A stretch of 64,000 nt of DNA from Syntrophales bacterium (GCA_963666365.2 CAXXNF010000002.1:2176001-2240000); one strand, 5' to 3'. Shown: positions 796 through 53,398, counted from the stretch's first letter. Program-made: numbers and translations. The notes: generated by a model not told the origin, from the sequence alone.

Positions 796-2205
796 ATGGA
801 AACAGATTACTTACACGCATTAGCAAATATAAAATTTGAAGTTGATTGTTGCCTAATTGTCCTTACCCAAGAGGGTGAAATCGATAATCCTCGAATCTAC
901 AAAGGCCCAGGTACAATAATTCAAAATGACGAAAATTCATTTTCTGTCAAAATTTTTTGTGAAGGAAAATTAGATATTAAAGAAGTGTTTGGCAAAATTA
1001 ATCGTCTGACGCCTGGAAAATTAATCGAAAGGACAAACTACTACTCTCTTGAAGCATCTGACTATGCTGGGAATACATGGACTGCAAACTCCATAATGCC
1101 TAATACAAATGGTGGTATGGACTGTGACGGTTTTTTGGTTTCTGGCAATTTCACTAGGTTATTTTGCCACAGAAAAGAACACTATGAATACAAAGGAATG
1201 ACATTAAAATTATTTTACAAAGGAAAATATAAAATCCCATGTAATACGGTTACAAAATCAAAGCACATAATCGGAACTGAGGATAGAGGAACAAGTAGCA
1301 AATTGAATGTTGCTCAGTTTGAAATTGAAAATATTGAATTCGAAATCTTATCAGACGATGACAGGCTTATTGTTTATCTCTACTCTCAGAGCGAAAATCT
1401 AACAAAAGTTACCGCCCAGAGAATACATGAGGCTCTTCAGTTTGTATTGGTTAACTTAGAGCCTTGGGATATTTTGTTAATTCAAAAAAGTAACATCCAA
1501 GAAACCATCTTTCGAACTGTTCCTCCGACATCTCGGAAATCAAGAGTTCAGCCACCATTGCATTTTGATTCAGTGGATAGAGGTGGGTATGTATGGAATA
1601 TGTTCGAATTATTTCTAAAGTATTCATTGCCGTACCAAGAGGCAGATTGGCACCCATTGTATGCACAAGTTCATAAAGTTATAGAGTCAGGGAAAGCATC
1701 CATTGAAGCACATGCTTTAACATTAGCCGTTTCAATAGAAGGACTGCTTAAATTGTGCTTTCGCGAAGTTGCTCTCCCAGATGATGAGTTCAAGAATAAA
1801 GTTAAAAAAGCAACTGATGAAATTAACAACAGTGGCATCGATAGCAATCTAAAAATAAGGCTGCAAGGCGCACTTGGAGCAATGAAAAGCCCCAGAGCCA
1901 AGGATAGACTTTATAGCCTGCAGCAATCGGGAATAGTTGAGGAACGACTTGTTACTTCATGGAGCAACATGAGAAATAGTTCTGCTCATTCGGATTCCAT
2001 AGAGTTATTAGAAATACAAAATTTTTTAAATGATTGTAGTGCAATGTGTGTACTTTTTAACCAACTAATTTTTCACGTAATTGGCTATAGGGGAGAATAT
2101 ACAGACTATAGCGTTTATGGTTATCCGAAGAAAAAATATGAACCGATAGAAACCCTAACAAATATAGGATTAGTCCCGAGTCGAGGAACGAGCGCTCGGA
2201 ACTAA
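796..2205 (+). CDS. ApeA-like protein with C-terminal HEPN domain (putative anti-phage RNase), integron gene cassette
   Basis: 469 aa; beta-rich N-terminus, helical C-terminus with LAVSIEGLL and RNSSAH (Rx4H) motif; bounded by GTTAGGG/CCCTAAC; last ~14 codons come from the inserted element. Confidence 0.65.
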   Translation: METDYLHALANIKFEVDCCLIVLTQEGEIDNPRIYKGPGTIIQNDENSFSVKIFCEGKLDIKEVFGKINRLTPGKLIERTNYYSLEASDYAGNTWTANSIMPNTNGGMDCDGFLVSGNFTRLFCHRKEHYEYKGMTLKLFYKGKYKIPCNTVTKSKHIIGTEDRGTSSKLNVAQFEIENIEFEILSDDDRLIVYLYSQSENLTKVTAQRIHEALQFVLVNLEPWDILLIQKSNIQETIFRTVPPTSRKSRVQPPLHFDSVDRGGYVWNMFELFLKYSLPYQEADWHPLYAQVHKVIESGKASIEAHALTLAVSIEGLLKLCFREVALPDDEFKNKVKKATDEINNSGIDSNLKIRLQGALGAMKSPRAKDRLYSLQQSGIVEERLVTSWSNMRNSSAHSDSIELLEIQNFLNDCSAMCVLFNQLIFHVIGYRGEYTDYSVYGYPKKKYEPIETLTNIGLVPSRGTSARN

Positions 2206-2465
2206 TCCATGGTTCAAGAAGCCGCGGGCTATAGGGGAAAAGGTTCGATAATCCTGGGATGGTTTTGAAGATTGAATCAGGTAAAAGACCGGAAGAAGAT
2301 CTTTGAAAACATGGTCAATCGAAAGTAAAGGGATTCATCGTCATGAGAAATCCTGATTAAAAGGGTTAAAAGCCTGCCTTTGGGCAGACGGGTGCTATAG
2401 AGCATTCCCTAGTATAGATCATCTCTCGTGGCCTGAAAAAAATCATTGTCTTGCAGATATATTTT

Positions 2466-3560
2466 CTATCCCGAAGGACCCCATCGGGGCATAGGACTTA
2501 CAAAGGCAATAAACCTTAACGCCTGTCCACAGCAGGGACATTTAATCCCTTCCCCTTTATGTTCGGGTGTGTTGGGTAAGAGATCACGGATGACATCGTG
2601 GATTAATGAAATGAGTTCACGCAGCTGTTCGATTGAGAAGGAACTGTTTGAATTGAGAAAGCCGTAGTATCGTATTTTCATAAGCCCTTTCGGCAGGACA
2701 TGCTGAAGAAATCTTCGGATAAACTCCACGGCATCAAGCTTCATGGTTTTCCATGTCTTCTTCCGACGATCTTTATATCGAAATGTAATGACGCCGTTTT
2801 CAATATTTTTAATGCGGTTATTAGAGATGGCGACGCGGAAGACATACCGTGAAAGGTAGCGCAGAGAGTTTTGCCCCGTTCCCACGGCCTGACTATCGAC
2901 AACCCATTGTTGCGTCCAGAGGTCGGGATGAATGGTATCAAAGAGTCTGGCCTTTTTCATTGCATCCCGGAACTTGGCCCGAAAGATGATTGCCAGGGGT
3001 TGTGTGTGCACAAAGAGATCTTGTCTTGAGGATACCCATTGATCTCCTTTTTCGGATACTGCGCCGCCCGGAATAACCAGATGGAGATGAGGGTGATACT
3101 GAAGCATGTTTCCCCAGGTATGGAGCACGGCCAGATAACCGATTCGTGTTGAGCCGACAAACCGCTTGTCTTTCGCTAATTTCCTTAGCGCTGCATGAGC
3201 GCATGAGAACATGGCCGCATAAACGATCTTTTGATGGGATCTGGCAACTTCCCGAAGGCCTTGCGGCAGCGTTATGGTTAAGAGGAAATAATGGGTGGGC
3301 AAAAGCTGTTCCATCTGTTTGTGAAGCCATTGATCCCTTTTATCATGCTGACAGTTCGGACAGTGGCGATTCCCGCAGCAACAGGGAATGGAGTGTATGG
3401 CGCCACAGTCATGACAGCCATACACAATCGTTCCGAAAGAACCACTGCGGCAATCAGTGATATCCTGCATGGCTTTTTTATGAATGTGCGGCATTCGGTC
3501 GCCATGCAGCGCCAGATAGTGCGGCCCATATATCTGGAAGATTTTTTGAATAGCGCTCAT
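2466..3560 (-). CDS. IS91 family rolling-circle transposase
   Basis: N-terminal Zn-binding CxxCG...CCGNRHCPNC, HUH motif HPHLH, Y2 motif YLSRY, RFLQHVLPKG..KIRYYG. Confidence 0.93.
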   Translation of the reverse strand: MSAIQKIFQIYGPHYLALHGDRMPHIHKKAMQDITDCRSGSFGTIVYGCHDCGAIHSIPCCCGNRHCPNCQHDKRDQWLHKQMEQLLPTHYFLLTITLPQGLREVARSHQKIVYAAMFSCAHAALRKLAKDKRFVGSTRIGYLAVLHTWGNMLQYHPHLHLVIPGGAVSEKGDQWVSSRQDLFVHTQPLAIIFRAKFRDAMKKARLFDTIHPDLWTQQWVVDSQAVGTGQNSLRYLSRYVFRVAISNNRIKNIENGVITFRYKDRRKKTWKTMKLDAVEFIRRFLQHVLPKGLMKIRYYGFLNSNSSFSIEQLRELISLIHDVIRDLLPNTPEHKGEGIKCPCCGQALRFIAFVSPMPRWGPSG

Positions 3561-4432
3561 GACAACACCCCCTGCATCACCTGTGAGACCCTAGTATGGG
3601 AATCGGTTTGGGCCTGAGTGGTCACATGCAGATACACCATGGTGCTTTGCAACGTTTTGTGGCCCAATATTTTTTGGACATGCCGTATGGGGATATTGGC
3701 TTCCAGCAGGTGCGTTGCATAGGCATGGCGAAAGACATGGGGATGAATATGTTTTTTAAACCCCAGACGCTTCAATGTGCGTTGCAGAACCCCTTGGACG
3801 CCGCTGTCGCTGACATGTGCATTTGCAAATTGAGCATCTTTGCCTCCGTTGTGACCCAGGGCGGGAAAGATCCATTTTGGATTGCGGTGGCTTTTATAGT
3901 ACTCACGTAAAGCCAAGAGGGTGATTTTCGGTAAGGGGACTGTCCGATCCAGTGCCCCTTTCCCCGCATGGATGTGAACCAGACCCCGATCGGAGAGAAT
4001 GTCCCCGACTTGCAGCGTCGTTGCTTCCCTGAGACGAAGTCCCAGGGAATATAAGGTCAGGTAAAAGGTATGACTCTGTAACGTGGGAAGGGCATAAATG
4101 ATCTTTCTCACTTCCTGAAGGCTTAAGATAGTGGGAAGCGTCTGGTCACGCTTCCACTTGATTTCATTGAAAATGTTCCAGGACCGGACAAGCGTCCTGG
4201 TGAAAAAATGCTGGATTCCGGCGTAACTGATTCGTAACGATGCAGCGCTCCAGCCGAATTCACTTTGGCAACAAAGCCAATATTGACGCAGTTCCTCTTC
4301 GGTGATATCTTCTAGCGGCTTGTTGTAAAAGCGTTGCAAGCGCAATACGGAACTTACATACGACTGAATACTTCTTTTTGCATAACCGGCTAACTGGAGA
4401 TCCTCCTTGAAACGTTTGATCACATGGCTCAT
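3557..4432 (-). CDS. tyrosine recombinase (XerD/IntI-like with SAM-like N-domain)
   Basis: GLRLRE, GKG, HVFRHAYATH, LGH, TMVY catalytic motifs; start set at MSHVIK after AGGAAG; ATGA overlap with transposase. Confidence 0.92.
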   Translation of the reverse strand: MSHVIKRFKEDLQLAGYAKRSIQSYVSSVLRLQRFYNKPLEDITEEELRQYWLCCQSEFGWSAASLRISYAGIQHFFTRTLVRSWNIFNEIKWKRDQTLPTILSLQEVRKIIYALPTLQSHTFYLTLYSLGLRLREATTLQVGDILSDRGLVHIHAGKGALDRTVPLPKITLLALREYYKSHRNPKWIFPALGHNGGKDAQFANAHVSDSGVQGVLQRTLKRLGFKKHIHPHVFRHAYATHLLEANIPIRHVQKILGHKTLQSTMVYLHVTTQAQTDSHTRVSQVMQGVLS

Positions 4433-5412
4433 GGTATCTTCCTTTCTTCTTTTAACCTTGTCGGGTAGAAGATACCGACCTGCAAGCCGGGATGAAGATA
4501 CCATGACTTATTTGATCAAACAATGATGGTTGAAAATCATTAATCTGCCGCGTAGCGGCTTACTTGAACAACGCCATCAACTCGGACGTGCAAAAGCGCC
4601 GCTTCGCTCTGCTTTTGCACGCCAGTTATGGCGAGCGTTACCAATTACGAAAAGAAACATACTATCACACGATCTCTATTAGCTTCGTTGACTACAGGAA
4701 GGATCAGAGGGTGTCATAATCCCGGAAACCGACATTCACAAACTTGTGCCTTTCAACCTGTACTCAATGCTCCTGCCGGAGCGGTCGTGGTGCGGCTTTG
4801 TCCTTGAAGTCAGGTATGATAATAGGAACAGCGACAATCTCTATTTCGGGGAGTTATGTGATCTGAAAATAACTGCCTGGTCTAATTTGAACTTTCACAT
4901 ATTATGCGCATATTGTCCTTAATACCACAGAGATCCCGGTATCACTCATGAGCCACGTGCAGGAAACCGCGGCGCACGAGATAACATAATCCCGCAGTCC
5001 CCTGAATGGGTATGCTGCAAAGCACATGATTCCCGCTCAATAAGACACCGTCTGTTCTACGCCATAACAGATAAAGTTCCGTGTGCACGGCGGCTATAGA
5101 CTCCCTCCCTCGAAACAAACTGTCCTCTCGGCATATACATTCAAAAGAGATTTGCAAGAACGCCCGAGATAACCGCATTTCGCGATGTAAAGGGGTTTTT
5201 CTTCGCATACCAAGGCGGTTATTGCGAGTTGCCGTCAAAAACCTTGCGGGAAGTCTTTTTCAAGGGTTTATTCCCCACAATCCACACATACGCCCGTCAG
5301 TTTGTTTCCCTTCATGACCCTCAAACAAAAATTTTCCGATCTGCGGAACACACCTGAACAAATATATGTATTGGAAAAGATTCAAATCTTAATCATTAAG
5401 GAGGAAACAGTA

Positions 5413-5592
5413 ATGCAAAAGAAAATCTACATCAGACCGGTCTCTGTGGTGCTTTCTGACGAAATGTTCACCCGTATCAAGGAGATTACCGACAGGGAAA
5501 ACATAGGAATATCGGAGTACATCAGGGCGGCAATTCAGGAAAAATTCAACAATCAATCGAAATCACCAGGAGGAAATGGCCATGAAAGATAA
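5413..5592 (+). CDS. CopG/ribbon-helix-helix DNA-binding protein
   Basis: VSVVLSDEMFTRIKEITDRENIGISEYIRAAI pattern; GGAGG RBS. Confidence 0.7.
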   Translation: MQKKIYIRPVSVVLSDEMFTRIKEITDRENIGISEYIRAAIQEKFNNQSKSPGGNGHER

Positions 5593-5791
5593 AGCCTATC
5601 GCACCACCTTCAGTTTTTTAATTGACGCAACCATACACCGCTCTCTGAAAGATGCGGCTAAAAAGGATAAAAGCACCATGTCAAAGCTCTTGCGCGAGGC
5701 CATTGACATGAAACTCAGGGACATCAACAGCCAGAACGGAACCATCGAACTCATGGAGGAGGGATTGAAAGATGAAGGAACAGGAAAATAA
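5576..5791 (+). CDS. ribbon-helix-helix DNA-binding protein
   Basis: TFSFLIDATIHRSLKDAAKKDKSTMSKLLREAI pattern; overlaps upstream gene. Confidence 0.65.
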   Translation: MAMKDKAYRTTFSFLIDATIHRSLKDAAKKDKSTMSKLLREAIDMKLRDINSQNGTIELMEEGLKDEGTGK

Positions 5792-6128
5792 AAAAGCAGA
5801 TGCACAAAAACAAAAAATGCCGGAATCGATGACGTTGATAACCAAGCAGGAAAAAAGACTTACTCAGCTCTGGAATGAAGTGCGGTTACTGGAGAAAAAA
5901 ATTCAAAAAATGGAGCAAAGGAAAGAATTGGAAGCGGTAACGGTCATGCTTTCCACTGAGCTGCTTGAAAGGGTGTACACATTTTTGATAGATTGCAACC
6001 GGGCCACAGGAGACAAAATGAGCTTTTCCGAGTATGTTGAAAATTCCCTTTTTCTGTGCCTGGAAGCAGAGGAAAGCCAATGGCAACAAGAGCAGGAAGA
6101 GGCAATGAAGCAGGAGACCGGGAAATAA
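5772..6128 (+). CDS. coiled-coil plus RHH-like hypothetical protein
   Basis: N-terminal coiled coil, then VTVMLSTELLERV...MSFSEYVENSL. Confidence 0.5.
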   Translation: MKEQENKKADAQKQKMPESMTLITKQEKRLTQLWNEVRLLEKKIQKMEQRKELEAVTVMLSTELLERVYTFLIDCNRATGDKMSFSEYVENSLFLCLEAEESQWQQEQEEAMKQETGK

Positions 6129-6301
6129 TGAAAGGCTCTGGATGAAATGATGTGAAATATGAGTGATATCTGCGGGAGTTGCTTATGGAGATGGAGACGC
6201 TCTCGCAGATCGTAACCGTACGACCAACTCATCTTTCGCTTGAACGCACATTGGATTATAGCTTCCCGTCATGAACACATTTCATGATTGGAGGATGCCC
6301 T

Positions 6302-6613
6302 ATGACACAACAAGAACGCACCGCCCACTGGTCGGCCATCGTAGAGCGGCAGATCGCAAGCGGGATGAGCGGTCTGGCCTGGTGCCAGATGCATCAGATC
6401 AATACGGCAAGTTTCTACTCCTGGCGCCGGAAACTCACTGAACCGCAAGGACAACAGGGATTTATCGAACTTGCATCCTCGACGGCCGACTATGCCGGCA
6501 TTCGCATTTGCATGGGGCCGCTTCTTTCCATCGAAGTGGAACGCGGCTTCGATCCCGTTACCCTGCGCACCGTTATTGAAACGCTTCATAATGGTTCCCC
6601 ATGTTCGGCCTGA
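6302..6613 (+). CDS. tnpA: IS66 accessory protein TnpA
   Basis: W...SGMSGLAWCQMHQINTASFYSWRRKL HTH motif. Confidence 0.85.
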   Translation: MTQQERTAHWSAIVERQIASGMSGLAWCQMHQINTASFYSWRRKLTEPQGQQGFIELASSTADYAGIRICMGPLLSIEVERGFDPVTLRTVIETLHNGSPCSA

Positions 6614-6942
6614 CAGCATCGGCACGCATCTATCTTTATCGCAGCCCCTGCGACATGCGCAAGTCCTTCGACGGCCTGTGCGGCATTGTCCGCGCCGAAC
6701 TTAGCGCCGATCCCCTTTCGGGATCACTCTTCGTCTTCGTCAACCGGCGGCGGAACATGGTGAAGCTCCTGTACTGGGACAGCGACGGCATGGCCATCTG
6801 GCTGAAACGTCTGGAGCAGGGGTCCTTCGTGCTGCCTTCCCGGCAGTCCCGCGACGGTCATATCGAGCGCCGGGATCTGGCCATGCTCCTTGAGGGAATC
6901 GTGCCGAAAAAAGTGGGAAAACGGTACAAAATATGTGCATAA
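6601..6942 (+). CDS. tnpB: IS66 accessory protein TnpB
   Basis: DMRKSFDGL, LFVFVNRRRNMVKLLYWDSDG, KRLEQGSF. Confidence 0.93.
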   Translation: MFGLTASARIYLYRSPCDMRKSFDGLCGIVRAELSADPLSGSLFVFVNRRRNMVKLLYWDSDGMAIWLKRLEQGSFVLPSRQSRDGHIERRDLAMLLEGIVPKKVGKRYKICA

Positions 6943-6994
6943 AAAATAATATAAACACTTGACATTATTATAGTTATGTGCTATACGCCCGCTC

Positions 6995-8605
6995 ATGATA
7001 TTGACGGAAGCACAAGAGATTATCGACCGAAAAGATGCTGCCTGGATTCTGGAATTTGCCGCCCAAAAGGATGCCCAGATCGAAGCGCTTACCCAGAAGC
7101 TCGAATCCGCCCAGCGCCAGTTGACCACCCTGCAGCATCAGATGGAACAGCTGCTGAAACGGCTCTACGGCCGCAAGTCCGAAAAGATCAACCCCGGTCA
7201 GCTGATGTTCGACGACATGGTGCTTCAATCATTAGAGCAGAATGCGGCGGTGAAAGCACAGTTCGAAGACGCTTCTGCCACAGAGACTGTCAAGAAGCCC
7301 CGCAAGGCCTCCCGGCATCACGGCCGGGTTCCCATTCCGGAGCATCTCGAACGGGTGGAGATTCTGCTGGACGTGCCCGAGGATGAAAAGATCGATGCGG
7401 ACACGGGCGCACCCCTGAAGGTCATTTCCGTGGAAGTCTCGGAGAAGCTGGAATACCGGCCGGGGAGACTGATCGTCAACGTCTACAAGCGGCCCCAGTA
7501 TGCGCTGCCGGAGGCATCGGAATCTACCGCCGGCGTCATCGCCGCCTCGCTGCCCGATCACCCCATCGCCAAGTGCAAAGCCGACGTGGGGCTGCTTTCT
7601 CATCTGATCGTCAGCAAGTACGCCGATCATCTGCCTCTCTACCGACAGAACAGCATTCTGGAGCGGGAAGGAGTGGACATTCCCCGGGCCACCCAAACCA
7701 GCTGGCTCATGCAGGTCTATGAGAGCATTCGTCCCTTGGAAACAGTGCTTCAAAAGGCCGTCCTTGAGAGGGACGTGCTCTTTACCGACGATACGCCCGT
7801 TCCTCTGCAGGTCAAGGGAAACGGCAAGGTAAAGAAGGCCCGTCTCTGGGTCTATCTGCGGGGCGGTCCGGGACCGCCGCTGACGGCCTATGACTTCTCC
7901 ATTGATCGGAGCAAGACGCGCCCACTGGAGTATCTCAATGATTACCAGGGGTACGTCCATGCCGACGCCTACGGCGGCTACGACGAACTTTTCAAAAAAG
8001 AAGAGATTATCGAAGTGGGTTGCTGGGCCCATACCAGACGGAAGTTCGACGAGGCGGTTTCATCGCGTCCTCAAGAGGCCACGGACATCCTTGCCCGCAT
8101 CGCCCGGCTCTATCACGAGGTGGAGACCCCCTGTGCCGAGATGACGCCCGAGGAGCGGCGCCGTTTCCGGCAGGCGCATGCAACGCCGCTGCTTGAGGGA
8201 ATCTTTGCAAAGATTGAGGAACTGAGGCCCCGGACGACGCCCTCGGAGCCGTTGCGGACGGCCATCAACTACGCCCTGAATCAGCGGGAGGCGCTCTGCC
8301 GCTATCTGAAAGACGGACGGTTAAGACCCGACAACAACCTGGCGGAAAACGCCATTCGGCCCATAGCGGTAGGTCGAAAAAACTGGCTCTTCGTGGGCAG
8401 CGAACGGGGCGGCCGGGCGGCGGCCCTTTATATGGGTCTCGTTCAATCTTGCAAAAACTGCGACGTCAACCCCTGGGAGTACTTTGACGACATGCTTCGG
8501 CGGATCATGAGCCATCCCGTAAACCGCCTGCGGGAACTGCTTCCCGATCAGTGGAAGCCTGTGCCCAGGGATGAACGGGGCCTGATCATCCAGGGAAAAC
8601 AATAA
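6995..8605 (+). CDS. tnpC: IS66 DDE transposase TnpC
   Basis: LYGRKSEK, KYADHLPLYRQ, DDTP, GCWAHTRRKF, DNNLAENAIR, GRKNWLF, LLPDQW. Confidence 0.95.
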   Translation: MILTEAQEIIDRKDAAWILEFAAQKDAQIEALTQKLESAQRQLTTLQHQMEQLLKRLYGRKSEKINPGQLMFDDMVLQSLEQNAAVKAQFEDASATETVKKPRKASRHHGRVPIPEHLERVEILLDVPEDEKIDADTGAPLKVISVEVSEKLEYRPGRLIVNVYKRPQYALPEASESTAGVIAASLPDHPIAKCKADVGLLSHLIVSKYADHLPLYRQNSILEREGVDIPRATQTSWLMQVYESIRPLETVLQKAVLERDVLFTDDTPVPLQVKGNGKVKKARLWVYLRGGPGPPLTAYDFSIDRSKTRPLEYLNDYQGYVHADAYGGYDELFKKEEIIEVGCWAHTRRKFDEAVSSRPQEATDILARIARLYHEVETPCAEMTPEERRRFRQAHATPLLEGIFAKIEELRPRTTPSEPLRTAINYALNQREALCRYLKDGRLRPDNNLAENAIRPIAVGRKNWLFVGSERGGRAAALYMGLVQSCKNCDVNPWEYFDDMLRRIMSHPVNRLRELLPDQWKPVPRDERGLIIQGKQ

Positions 8606-53256: not shown

Positions 53257-53398
53257 AACAAATAAAGAATTAGTCCCGAGTCGAGGAACGAGAGCTCGAA
53301 ACTAATCCATGGTTGAAGAAGCCGCGCGCTATAAGGGAAAAGGTTCGATAATCCTGGGATGGTTTTGAAGAGTGGATCAGGTCAAGACCCGAGGAAGA
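53257..53398 (-). mobile_element. orphan copy of the oriIS-side end of the IS91/recombinase element
   Basis: About 140 bp closely similar to 2157-2299, also starting AACAA. Confidence 0.85.

Follow-up and report, generated by a model that had tools for sequence, protein, structure and literature searches.

The 64,000-nucleotide stretch analysed here (the window, numbered from its first letter) comes from a Syntrophales bacterium (GCA_963666365.2 CAXXNF010000002.1:2176001-2240000) whose genome assembly consists of two contigs, amounts to 4.0 Mb and is 94% complete. Near the beginning of the window, a cassette-like open reading frame (ORF) is followed by the R'' box of an attC-type hairpin, the kind of site found in integron cassettes, then by a mobile element on the minus strand, and then by the remainder of the hairpin (Table 1). 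The element encodes an IS91-family transposase and a tyrosine recombinase, as had been claimed in an earlier interpretation made from the sequence alone (the sequence-only reading), and we conclude with high confidence that it is an IS91-family element that homes to attC.

Table 1. Coordinates of the element, its target site and the element B copies (C2 is a contig of the host genome; other positions are those of the window)
Feature	Position	Strand	Basis or remark
Mobile element	2160-4569	minus	2,410 bp; IS91-family transposase and tyrosine recombinase; limits from second copy and relative L020
IS91-family Y2-HUH transposase, 364 aa	2466-3560	minus	Y2_Tnp, Zn_Tnp_IS91 and NF033538 matches
Xer-like tyrosine recombinase, 315 aa	3557-4504	minus	Phage_integrase, 113.8 bits, 9.3e-33; N-terminal SAM-like domain
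Transposase-downstream end	2160-2225	minus	Fold; conservation of ~65-nt module; truncated copies with this end alone
T-rich 7-nt spacer	2160-2166	minus	Within transposase-downstream end
14-bp-arm hairpin	2167-2208	minus	Within transposase-downstream end; 3 nt separate it from the inverted repeat
Subterminal inverted repeat	2212-2225	minus	Partner of left-end repeat in 4545-4569
Recombinase-upstream (left) end	4545-4569	minus	Starts GTTCAAG, then small GCCGC/GCGGC hairpin; inverted-repeat partner of 2212-2225
Putative first core site of upstream cassette, GTTAGGG	777-783	plus	Exact complement of R'' box 2153-2159
Upstream cassette-like ORF, 469 aa	796-2205	plus	No Pfam or NCBIfam match; last 15 codons and stop inside the element
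R'' box (inverse core), CCCTAAC	2153-2159	plus	Severed from rest of attC; GTTAGGG on the element strand
attC remainder	4570-4640	plus	Spacer, L'' arm with bulges, loop, L' arm, R' box GTTACCA (4634-4640)
Hybrid site	4563-4643	minus	attC remainder with the element's first 7 nt in place of R''; model-complete
Element B, recombinase and IS91	C2:438266-440783; C2:1855361-1857878		2,512 bp; two copies, 99.3% identity; second lineage

The element and its target in the window

The transposase matches Y2_Tnp (PF04986, 195.9 bits, 7.8e-58), Zn_Tnp_IS91 (PF14319, 88 bits, 4.3e-25) and NF033538 (366.8 bits, cut-off 125), and its translation contains HPHLHLV and YLSRY, which we take to be the HUH and paired-tyrosine catalytic motifs. 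The recombinase gene lies upstream, its stop codon overlapping the transposase ATG by 4 nt, and probably starts at the ATG at 4432 (291 aa) rather than at the first ATG. Its best named models, both under cut-off, are archaeal XerA (158 bits, cut-off 220) and the integron integrase model TIGR02249 (141.3 bits, cut-off 265), the latter match falling in two separate stretches, and its nearest solved structures are an XerC-like protein (4a8e) and IntI4 (2a3v). Residues 201-212 of the recombinase face residues 179-222 of IntI4, with 10 residues against 42, so the recombinase, a distant relative of IntI that scores far under the family cut-off, lacks the IntI-specific insertion, which binds the extrahelical bases of attC. 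All 10 full-length copies conserve the catalytic residues (R, K, HxxR, H and Y), so that enzymatic activity should be needed; the recombinase of the second copy in this genome (see below) has RN for RH beside the catalytic arginine. A domain search of the element's proteins returned only Y2_Tnp, Zn_Tnp_IS91 and Phage_integrase domains, with no DEDD transposase and no reverse transcriptase. The pairing of an IS91 transposase with a "site-specific tyrosine recombinase/integron integrase" is a widely annotated two-gene layout, and a search of plasmid proteins returned distant relatives only (at most 37% identity).

The limits of the element were set by comparison with a second full copy at C2:1070893-1073302 (100% identity after rounding, with three differences seen) and with a relative, L020, whose first and last bases agree with these limits. 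The second copy lies inside a 370-codon open frame, at GAT, between the flanks ...ATC and CAC.... The flanks of the two copies are unrelated, with AAC as the sole bases in common, indicating that there is no target-site duplication. The sequence-only reading was right in placing the insertion at the R'' box, but the unit it delimited, 2162-4571, is to be moved by two bases; cutting either interval gives the same product because AA stands after both cut points. Likewise, AACAA does occur at both junctions (2157-2161 and 4567-4571), as had been noted, but as a junction repeat it does not hold: the second copy, taken with 125 further junctions, shows that nothing but AAC (GTT on the element strand) recurs, and AACAA is therefore no target-site duplication. 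Since AAC ends both the R'' box and the element, the joint is ambiguous by three bases.

The two ends of the element differ in layout. Because the hairpin and spacer extend beyond it, the right inverted repeat is subterminal, and the right-end module of about 65 nt (2160-2225) is all that many short derivatives have in common with the element on that side. Joining the ends in silico brings the last 59 nt and the first 7 nt together in an R-box-closed hairpin, with a folding energy of -15.6 to -16.8 kcal/mol. Element B, a second lineage with two copies in this genome, has the same end layout, and its joined ends also form an R-box-closed hairpin. Beyond its second copy there is a tandem 108-nt repeat of that copy's right end, after which comes GTTAGCC; the rebuilt site of the first copy is not clearly attC-like.

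The R'' box is complementary at 7 of 7 positions to the GTTAGGG at 777-783, which lies 13 nt ahead of the ATG of ORF 796-2205, where the cassette would be expected to begin, in agreement with the sequence-only reading. That removing the element rebuilds an attC site holds in part. At 78 nt, the rebuilt site has a folding energy of -23.2 kcal/mol (z -6.3 relative to 300 shuffles) and three bulged bases, all on the 5' (R''/L'') arm, and fits the attC size of about 57-141 nt, but the hairpin lies mostly at 4570-4636, to the right of the element, where it stands by itself, and rebuilding adds only the R'' box, or four base pairs. The AAC and GTT of the R'' and R' boxes agree exactly with RYYYAAC/GTTRRRY, and their outer bases are off consensus. 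A BLAST search of the genome with the attC remainder gave no long match, only a loop motif common to other attC-type sites here. A first, crude attC scan, which required near-complementary R'' and R' boxes, a criterion too strict for arrays, found nothing real in the window, and no Rfam family matched anywhere in it.

Covariance models of the target were home-made and stood in for the model of IntegronFinder. The DNA around related elements supplied 20 candidate sequences, representing about 18 distinct sites, all of them intact R-box-closed hairpins. Model R1 was built from seven sites of one length class with hand-mapped structure, none in the window and two elsewhere in this genome; in its seed alignment 82.8% of cells are paired, compared with 31-48% when the sequences are slid, with 12 compensatory pairs and with none of 500 shuffles reaching pairing as high. 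This set replaced a MAFFT alignment of 14 mixed-length sites, which was not structural and in which RNAalifold found a 6-pair helix only. Searched against the 64-kb window, R1 gave a single match, on the minus strand at 4563-4643 (E 2.9e-9, 44 bits), covering the full model (positions 1-75). A second covariance model, R2, built from 29 intact sites and run with filters off, found the same interval (46.7 bits, E 6.1e-10), its other matches being weak (E 3.1 and 9.2). In both alignments the last box of the model is filled by the element's own GTTCAAG; the first seven bases of the element thus replace the displaced R'' box, and the split site still scores as a full attC. The suggestion, made in the sequence-only reading, that the insertion locks the upstream cassette in place finds no support in this. 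Genome-wide, contig C2 carries all 11 sites that R1 found at E <=0.01, dispersed as loose groups.

Junctions and rebuilt sites of related elements

A search with the transposase protein, one genome per species, found three loci in Thermodesulfobacteriota or Desulfobacteraceae assemblies (65-80% identity). A 17-nt pattern taken from the end hairpin occurred in 8 of 339 genomes of the same order, this one included; two of these were spurious, leaving five other genomes with 15 sites. The same pattern gathered at least 122 metagenomic stretches, and the counts of junctions, left ends and rebuilt sites given below are counts among the matches listed. Junctions less than 16 nt from a contig end, those whose 6-nt tail did not end in TT, and those with duplicate 40-nt flanks were excluded.

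At the transposase-downstream end, the flank begins with GTT in 118 of 127 distinct junctions. The bases that follow are A71/G28/C23, G77/T35, G66/A31/C23 and C73/T33; the commonest flank 7-mer is GTTAGGC (16 junctions), GTTRRRY fits 38 of the 127, and the R'' box of the window, GTTAGGG on the element strand, is one of the GTTAG-type flanks. On the other side, T is the usual base at both positions directly before the left end (22 of 26 and 19 of 26 cases), as is A at position -8 (25 of 26). Twenty-seven junctions had a left end within 3.2 kb, 11 of them belonging to full-length elements (2,310-2,471 bp) and 16 to mini-elements (115-595 bp), and the left end corresponding to 4545-4569 was kept in all 27 elements and mini-elements in which it could be detected. 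From the left end the mini-elements retain about 29 nt and from the right end 65-68 nt; they also keep transposon-type inverted repeats and are mobilised in trans.

Empty sites were rebuilt in silico for the 23 elements whose left flank measured 90 nt or more, AAC being forced to pair with GTT. Eleven of the 23 folded at <= -0.2 kcal/mol per nt and 14 at <= -0.15. The corresponding counts were 5 and 35 among 600 control GTT sites from this genome, and 20 and 42 among 501 control GTT sites from the same metagenome loci, an enrichment of hairpins at rebuilt sites of roughly 12- to 60-fold. Within 279,771 nt of sequence from 91 loci, R1 found 42 sites, 29 of them unoccupied and 13 ending exactly in the left end of an element. 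Of the 26 distinct left ends whose flank is 80 nt or longer, 13 thus abut an R1 match, always at the identical model position, and four more pass the -0.2 hairpin test; several of the remaining left-end sites look like shorter or much longer attC-type sites missed by the model or its threshold. In all 13 model-supported sites the insertion has single-nucleotide precision and one orientation relative to the hairpin. The check proposed in the sequence-only reading, namely to excise homologues in silico and score the empty sites with an attC model, thus came out in favour of that reading, with home-made models in the place of IntegronFinder's.

Where 300 nt of flank was available (85 junctions), the longest open frame runs antisense to the element 71 times and in the sense direction 11 times, with 3 ties. 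In 59 of the 85, an antisense ORF of 60 codons or more stops inside the element or no farther than 25 nt from the joint. Bulges lie mainly on the insertion-side arm in 9 of 10 single-hairpin rebuilt sites and on the opposite arm in none. The extrahelical bases of attC sit on the R''/L'' arm; on this basis, the sense strand of the element is continuous with the attC bottom strand, and the insertion point lies between the post-L'' spacer and the R'' box. Read on the attC bottom strand, the joint is therefore TT|GTT. It falls at the 5' edge of attC, the element runs antisense to the cassette, and nothing is duplicated; the transposase-downstream end abuts the GTT of R'', and the other end, GTTCAAG, abuts a 3-5-nt spacer after the L'' arm.

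Four of five related element-bearing genomes encode an IntI over the TIGR02249 cut-off. In one of them (genome G239, contig C85), a relative lies in a complete integron: 3.4 kb there hold an element end with GTTAGGC after it, three antisense ORFs, a 139-nt attC-type site that is intact, and a divergent intI, whose product scores 436 bits and which is 2.3 kb from the occupied site. In the genome under study, the best TIGR02249 matches are the recombinases of the two IS91-type elements. Given the lack of an IntI and the scattering of sites here, the site in the window is a stray attC-type site outside any working integron, and the two copies show that the element has moved recently in a genome without IntI. 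Together, the GTT flanks, the rebuilt hairpins, the left ends at model matches and the relative next to intI bear out the sequence-only reading in its central proposal, a distinct two-enzyme element that seeks attC.

Several observations weigh against this conclusion or limit it. Nine of the 23 rebuilt sites fold above -0.15 kcal/mol per nt, L020 and several others having a weak hairpin or none. The second copy in this genome is not in an attC, and targeting is thus a strong preference and not absolute. No IntI over the TIGR02249 cut-off is encoded in this genome (best 141.2 bits, against 265), and the window site, the one attC-type site in the window, is not in a cassette array beside an integron integrase. 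Upstream, R2 has no match in the window just before 777, the 7/7 complementarity being the one marker of that cassette boundary. ORF 796-2205 has no stop codon before the R'' box, and taking the element out in silico lets the frame continue across the attC as far as 4807, an oddity in a cassette. The R'' box together with the element hairpin (2153-2218), considered as a candidate attC, gave no model match at E <=10 with filters off. Moreover, the seeds of the covariance models come from loci found through the element, including the two of the seven R1 seeds that come from this genome, and a single 17-nt pattern gathered all of the junctions, so that one lineage was sampled. Finally, because of the ambiguity within AAC/GTT, a tyrosine-recombinase crossover fits the junctions as well as an HUH nick does.

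Joining mechanism and alternative explanations

As an explanation of the whole, we favour, with moderate confidence, an attC-homing IS91 element that has a translationally coupled Xer-like recombinase and is joined to its target by the HUH enzyme; on the joining step taken by itself, we lean slightly towards the HUH enzyme. IS91 uses GAAC/CAAG at its ends and target. The HUH transposase of the present element would nick and rejoin single strands 3' of NAAC (that is, 5' of GTTN) at both ends and at the target, and the folded single-stranded attC would be chosen for its likeness to the element end, in which a hairpin, a short T-rich spacer and GTT follow one another. With homing of this kind, insertion would depend on strand and stem, and not on TTGTTAGG alone. 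The recombinase would be needed for some step, for which binding of the folded attC, integration of a circle, and resolution of a circle or product are candidates.

The main rival, which we regard as possible although the less probable of the two, reverses these roles: the transposase would only make a circle, and the Xer-like recombinase would join the attC-like site of that circle to the R'' of a folded attC, in the manner of IntI but on the top strand, with the crossover inside AAC. An AA|C crossover fits every junction, the GAT site included, and the hairpin formed by the joined ends of this element, and likewise of element B, would provide such a site. The conserved catalytic residues, the 4-nt overlap with the transposase gene, and the best named relatives of the recombinase, XerA and integron integrases, also fit this explanation. 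However, the insertion with which IntI binds extrahelical bases is absent from the recombinase, and the element hairpin is unbulged and goes unrecognised by the attC models. The mini-elements, furthermore, all retain the left-end hairpin and both inverted repeats, which a one-site system would not need, and an NAAC-type target is already in use among IS91 relatives that have no recombinase. A different objection to attC homing is that the element might read only a short motif (about TTGTTAGGC), in double- or single-stranded form, which happens to coincide with the R'' consensus, the hairpin being irrelevant and the link with attC a by-product. The strong base preferences at flank positions 1-7 and at -1/-2 are what such targeting would produce, and some GTT insertions lack a convincing hairpin. 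We nevertheless consider it unlikely, as GTTRRRY is present in just 38 of 127 flanks, the stems of the targets vary widely in sequence while their geometry is constant, the pattern includes the L'' arm as well as the A at -8 (25 of 26), and the enrichment of hairpins stands against controls that also start with GTT.

Two further explanations dispense with targeting by the element itself, and we hold both to be very improbable. If the two genes were passive cargo, captured and moved as a cassette by a host IntI, the limits of the element would be expected to resemble those of a cassette, and on its own strand they do, with TTCAAG after G at the start and a hairpin site at the end; the hybrid site 4563-4643 also scores as a full attC. 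Yet the element is inverted relative to the neighbouring ORFs (71 of 85), the joint is at R'' and not at the R' crossover, transposon-type inverted repeats are kept in the mini-elements, the IS91-family transposase is genuine, and two near-identical copies, one of them in an open frame, are present in a genome without an IntI over the cut-off. Alternatively, an ordinary IS91-type element with a tetranucleotide target could insert anywhere, with the copies in attC surviving because they are harmless there. A 4-nt target suffices for the IS91 family and attC is non-coding, but survival alone would scatter insertions across intergenic DNA, whereas the model-supported sites (13 of 13) share single-nucleotide precision and one orientation, and the rebuilt sites are enriched about 12- to 60-fold over control GTT sites.

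Beyond homing, a bolder and doubtful extension is that the element is a self-mobilising mimic of a cassette and links transposition of the IS91 kind with integron recombination. Once joined, as a circle or a single strand, it would carry an attC-like site; its own IntI-related recombinase, lacking the bulge-reading domain, would recombine the joined site with the attC top strand at R''; and its first 7 nt would rebuild the attC, so that the array would stay functional and a host IntI could shuffle the element as a cassette. Were this so, units flanked by attC would have an integrase-independent route between genomes.

Comparison with known systems and minor observations

The element shares with the IS91 family (IS91, IS801, IS1294 and ISCR relatives) the transposase, the lack of target duplication and the placing of one end at a fixed NAAC/GTTN target. 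It differs from IS91, whose target is fixed, in that GTT (AAC on the other strand) is found at 118 of 127 junctions with A, G or C as the fourth base. It differs from the family in that its target is a structured attC hairpin, entered at one position and in one orientation, and in that the right inverted repeat is subterminal, with about 58 nt (hairpin and spacer) beyond it, and the first 7 nt stand in for R''. ISShvi3 and ISWz1 are IS91-family members that have an upstream tyrosine-recombinase gene. Our search of the full-text literature, which extended to open sources and not to subscription journals or the ISfinder and TnPedia pages, found no description of attC targeting by IS91-family elements. 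In a study of a Shewanella integron, the IS91-like ISShvi3 is described as "adjacent to an attC site", and no insertion sequence interrupting an attC was detected there (PMC9229058).

The attC-specific mobile elements described so far are of just two kinds, namely IS1111-attC insertion sequences and group IIC-attC introns (PMC3001079). IS1111-attC elements (ISPa21, ISPst6) insert close to attC's 5' end and lie antisense to the cassettes (PMC3001079), and IS1111 elements use a DEDD transposase, as stated in PMC11187229. The side and orientation of the IS1111-attC elements are those seen here, whereas the enzymes differ, a DEDD transposase there and a Y2-HUH transposase with a tyrosine recombinase here. 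The group IIC-attC introns (e.g., S.ma.I2) also share the side and orientation; they are, however, retroelements with a ribozyme and a reverse transcriptase, in contrast to the DNA transposition enzymes found here and to the window's lack of Rfam matches. The likeness to integron cassettes lies in the target, about 80 nt long with R''/L''/L'/R' boxes and with bulges on a single arm, and in the joined element ends, which fold like attC. Unlike a cassette moved by IntI, the element has its joint at R'' and not at R', and it has moved in a genome without an IntI over the cut-off.

The exact position of the element, which its relatives in other sediment bacteria share, points to a third kind of mobile element that homes to integron cassette sites. 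A third kind with an HUH transposase and an Xer/IntI-like recombinase would make folded attC a general landing pad for elements that depend on single strands, and attC homing would offer the recombinase gene carried by many IS91-family members, so far unexplained, its first role open to testing. For integron annotation, occupied sites, leftover ends of 30-180 nt and mini-elements alter cassette boundaries. Since the split site still scores as attC, such elements may also travel as cassettes, bringing rolling-circle mobilisation into integrons.

The contigs of four public sequencing runs contained neither a circle junction nor an empty-site joint, and such contigs drop rare forms. In runs X19, X20, X22 and X23, the summed contig depth was 80-320 over the ends of the element (2144-2254 and 4475-4585) compared with 4-11 over its body, and a joint from 2224 to 4544 was present at a depth of 144-358, its sides being just 18-26 nt long and its middle unread. 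This joint may derive from abundant mini-elements, possibly in other organisms of the same runs. Two runs of a second organism contain the element with scattered base differences, its flanks being absent.

Solitary right ends are found in the window, elsewhere in this genome and at other loci. The copy in the window (53257-53398, plus strand) is truncated to about 140 nt, is 91% identical to the transposase-downstream end and has the same start base; it is preceded by GTACAAC, and no ORF of at least 80 aa lies within about 450 nt on either side. Others in this genome lie at C2:432461-432643, 433177-433212, 1677947-1677980 and 1835854-1835980, and further ones at loci L031, L037, L117 and L170. 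Six are stubs of 30-33 nt broken inside the loop of the end hairpin near GTTC, the others measure 42-180 nt, and all retain the exact GTT junction. Premature termination, deletion or hairpin processing are possible origins. We rejected the idea that the six stubs reflect an IS91-type alternative termination at the loop GTTC, since their breaks differ (30 nt, 31 nt in three and 33 nt in two); the idea is also weakened by the other flank, which is no attC spacer. At two metagenomic loci, L110 and L132, solitary hairpins of the element type have junction-like sequence on both sides (...CTAAC-AAATAAA-hairpin-T-rich spacer-GTT...), and look like either a palindromic doubling of a 30-nt stub or an attC built on this hairpin.

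Ahead of the cassette, positions 1-128 recur at three places with 99-100% identity, and positions 508-587, with a terminator-like AGCCCT/AGGGCT hairpin among them, recur at 74-85% identity beside other IS91-type elements or attC-type sites (e.g., C2:440973-441050). After the attC, positions 5413-6128 on the plus strand hold three small overlapping ORFs, the first with a weak ribbon-helix-helix match (21.5 bits) and the others matching no family. An IS66-family unit (TnpB_IS66, 120.5 bits; DDE_Tnp_IS66, 300.7 bits) occupies positions 6284-8605 on the plus strand and C2:435098-437419; at its second site, the first 547-557 nt, the copy end included, recur at eight other places in the genome.

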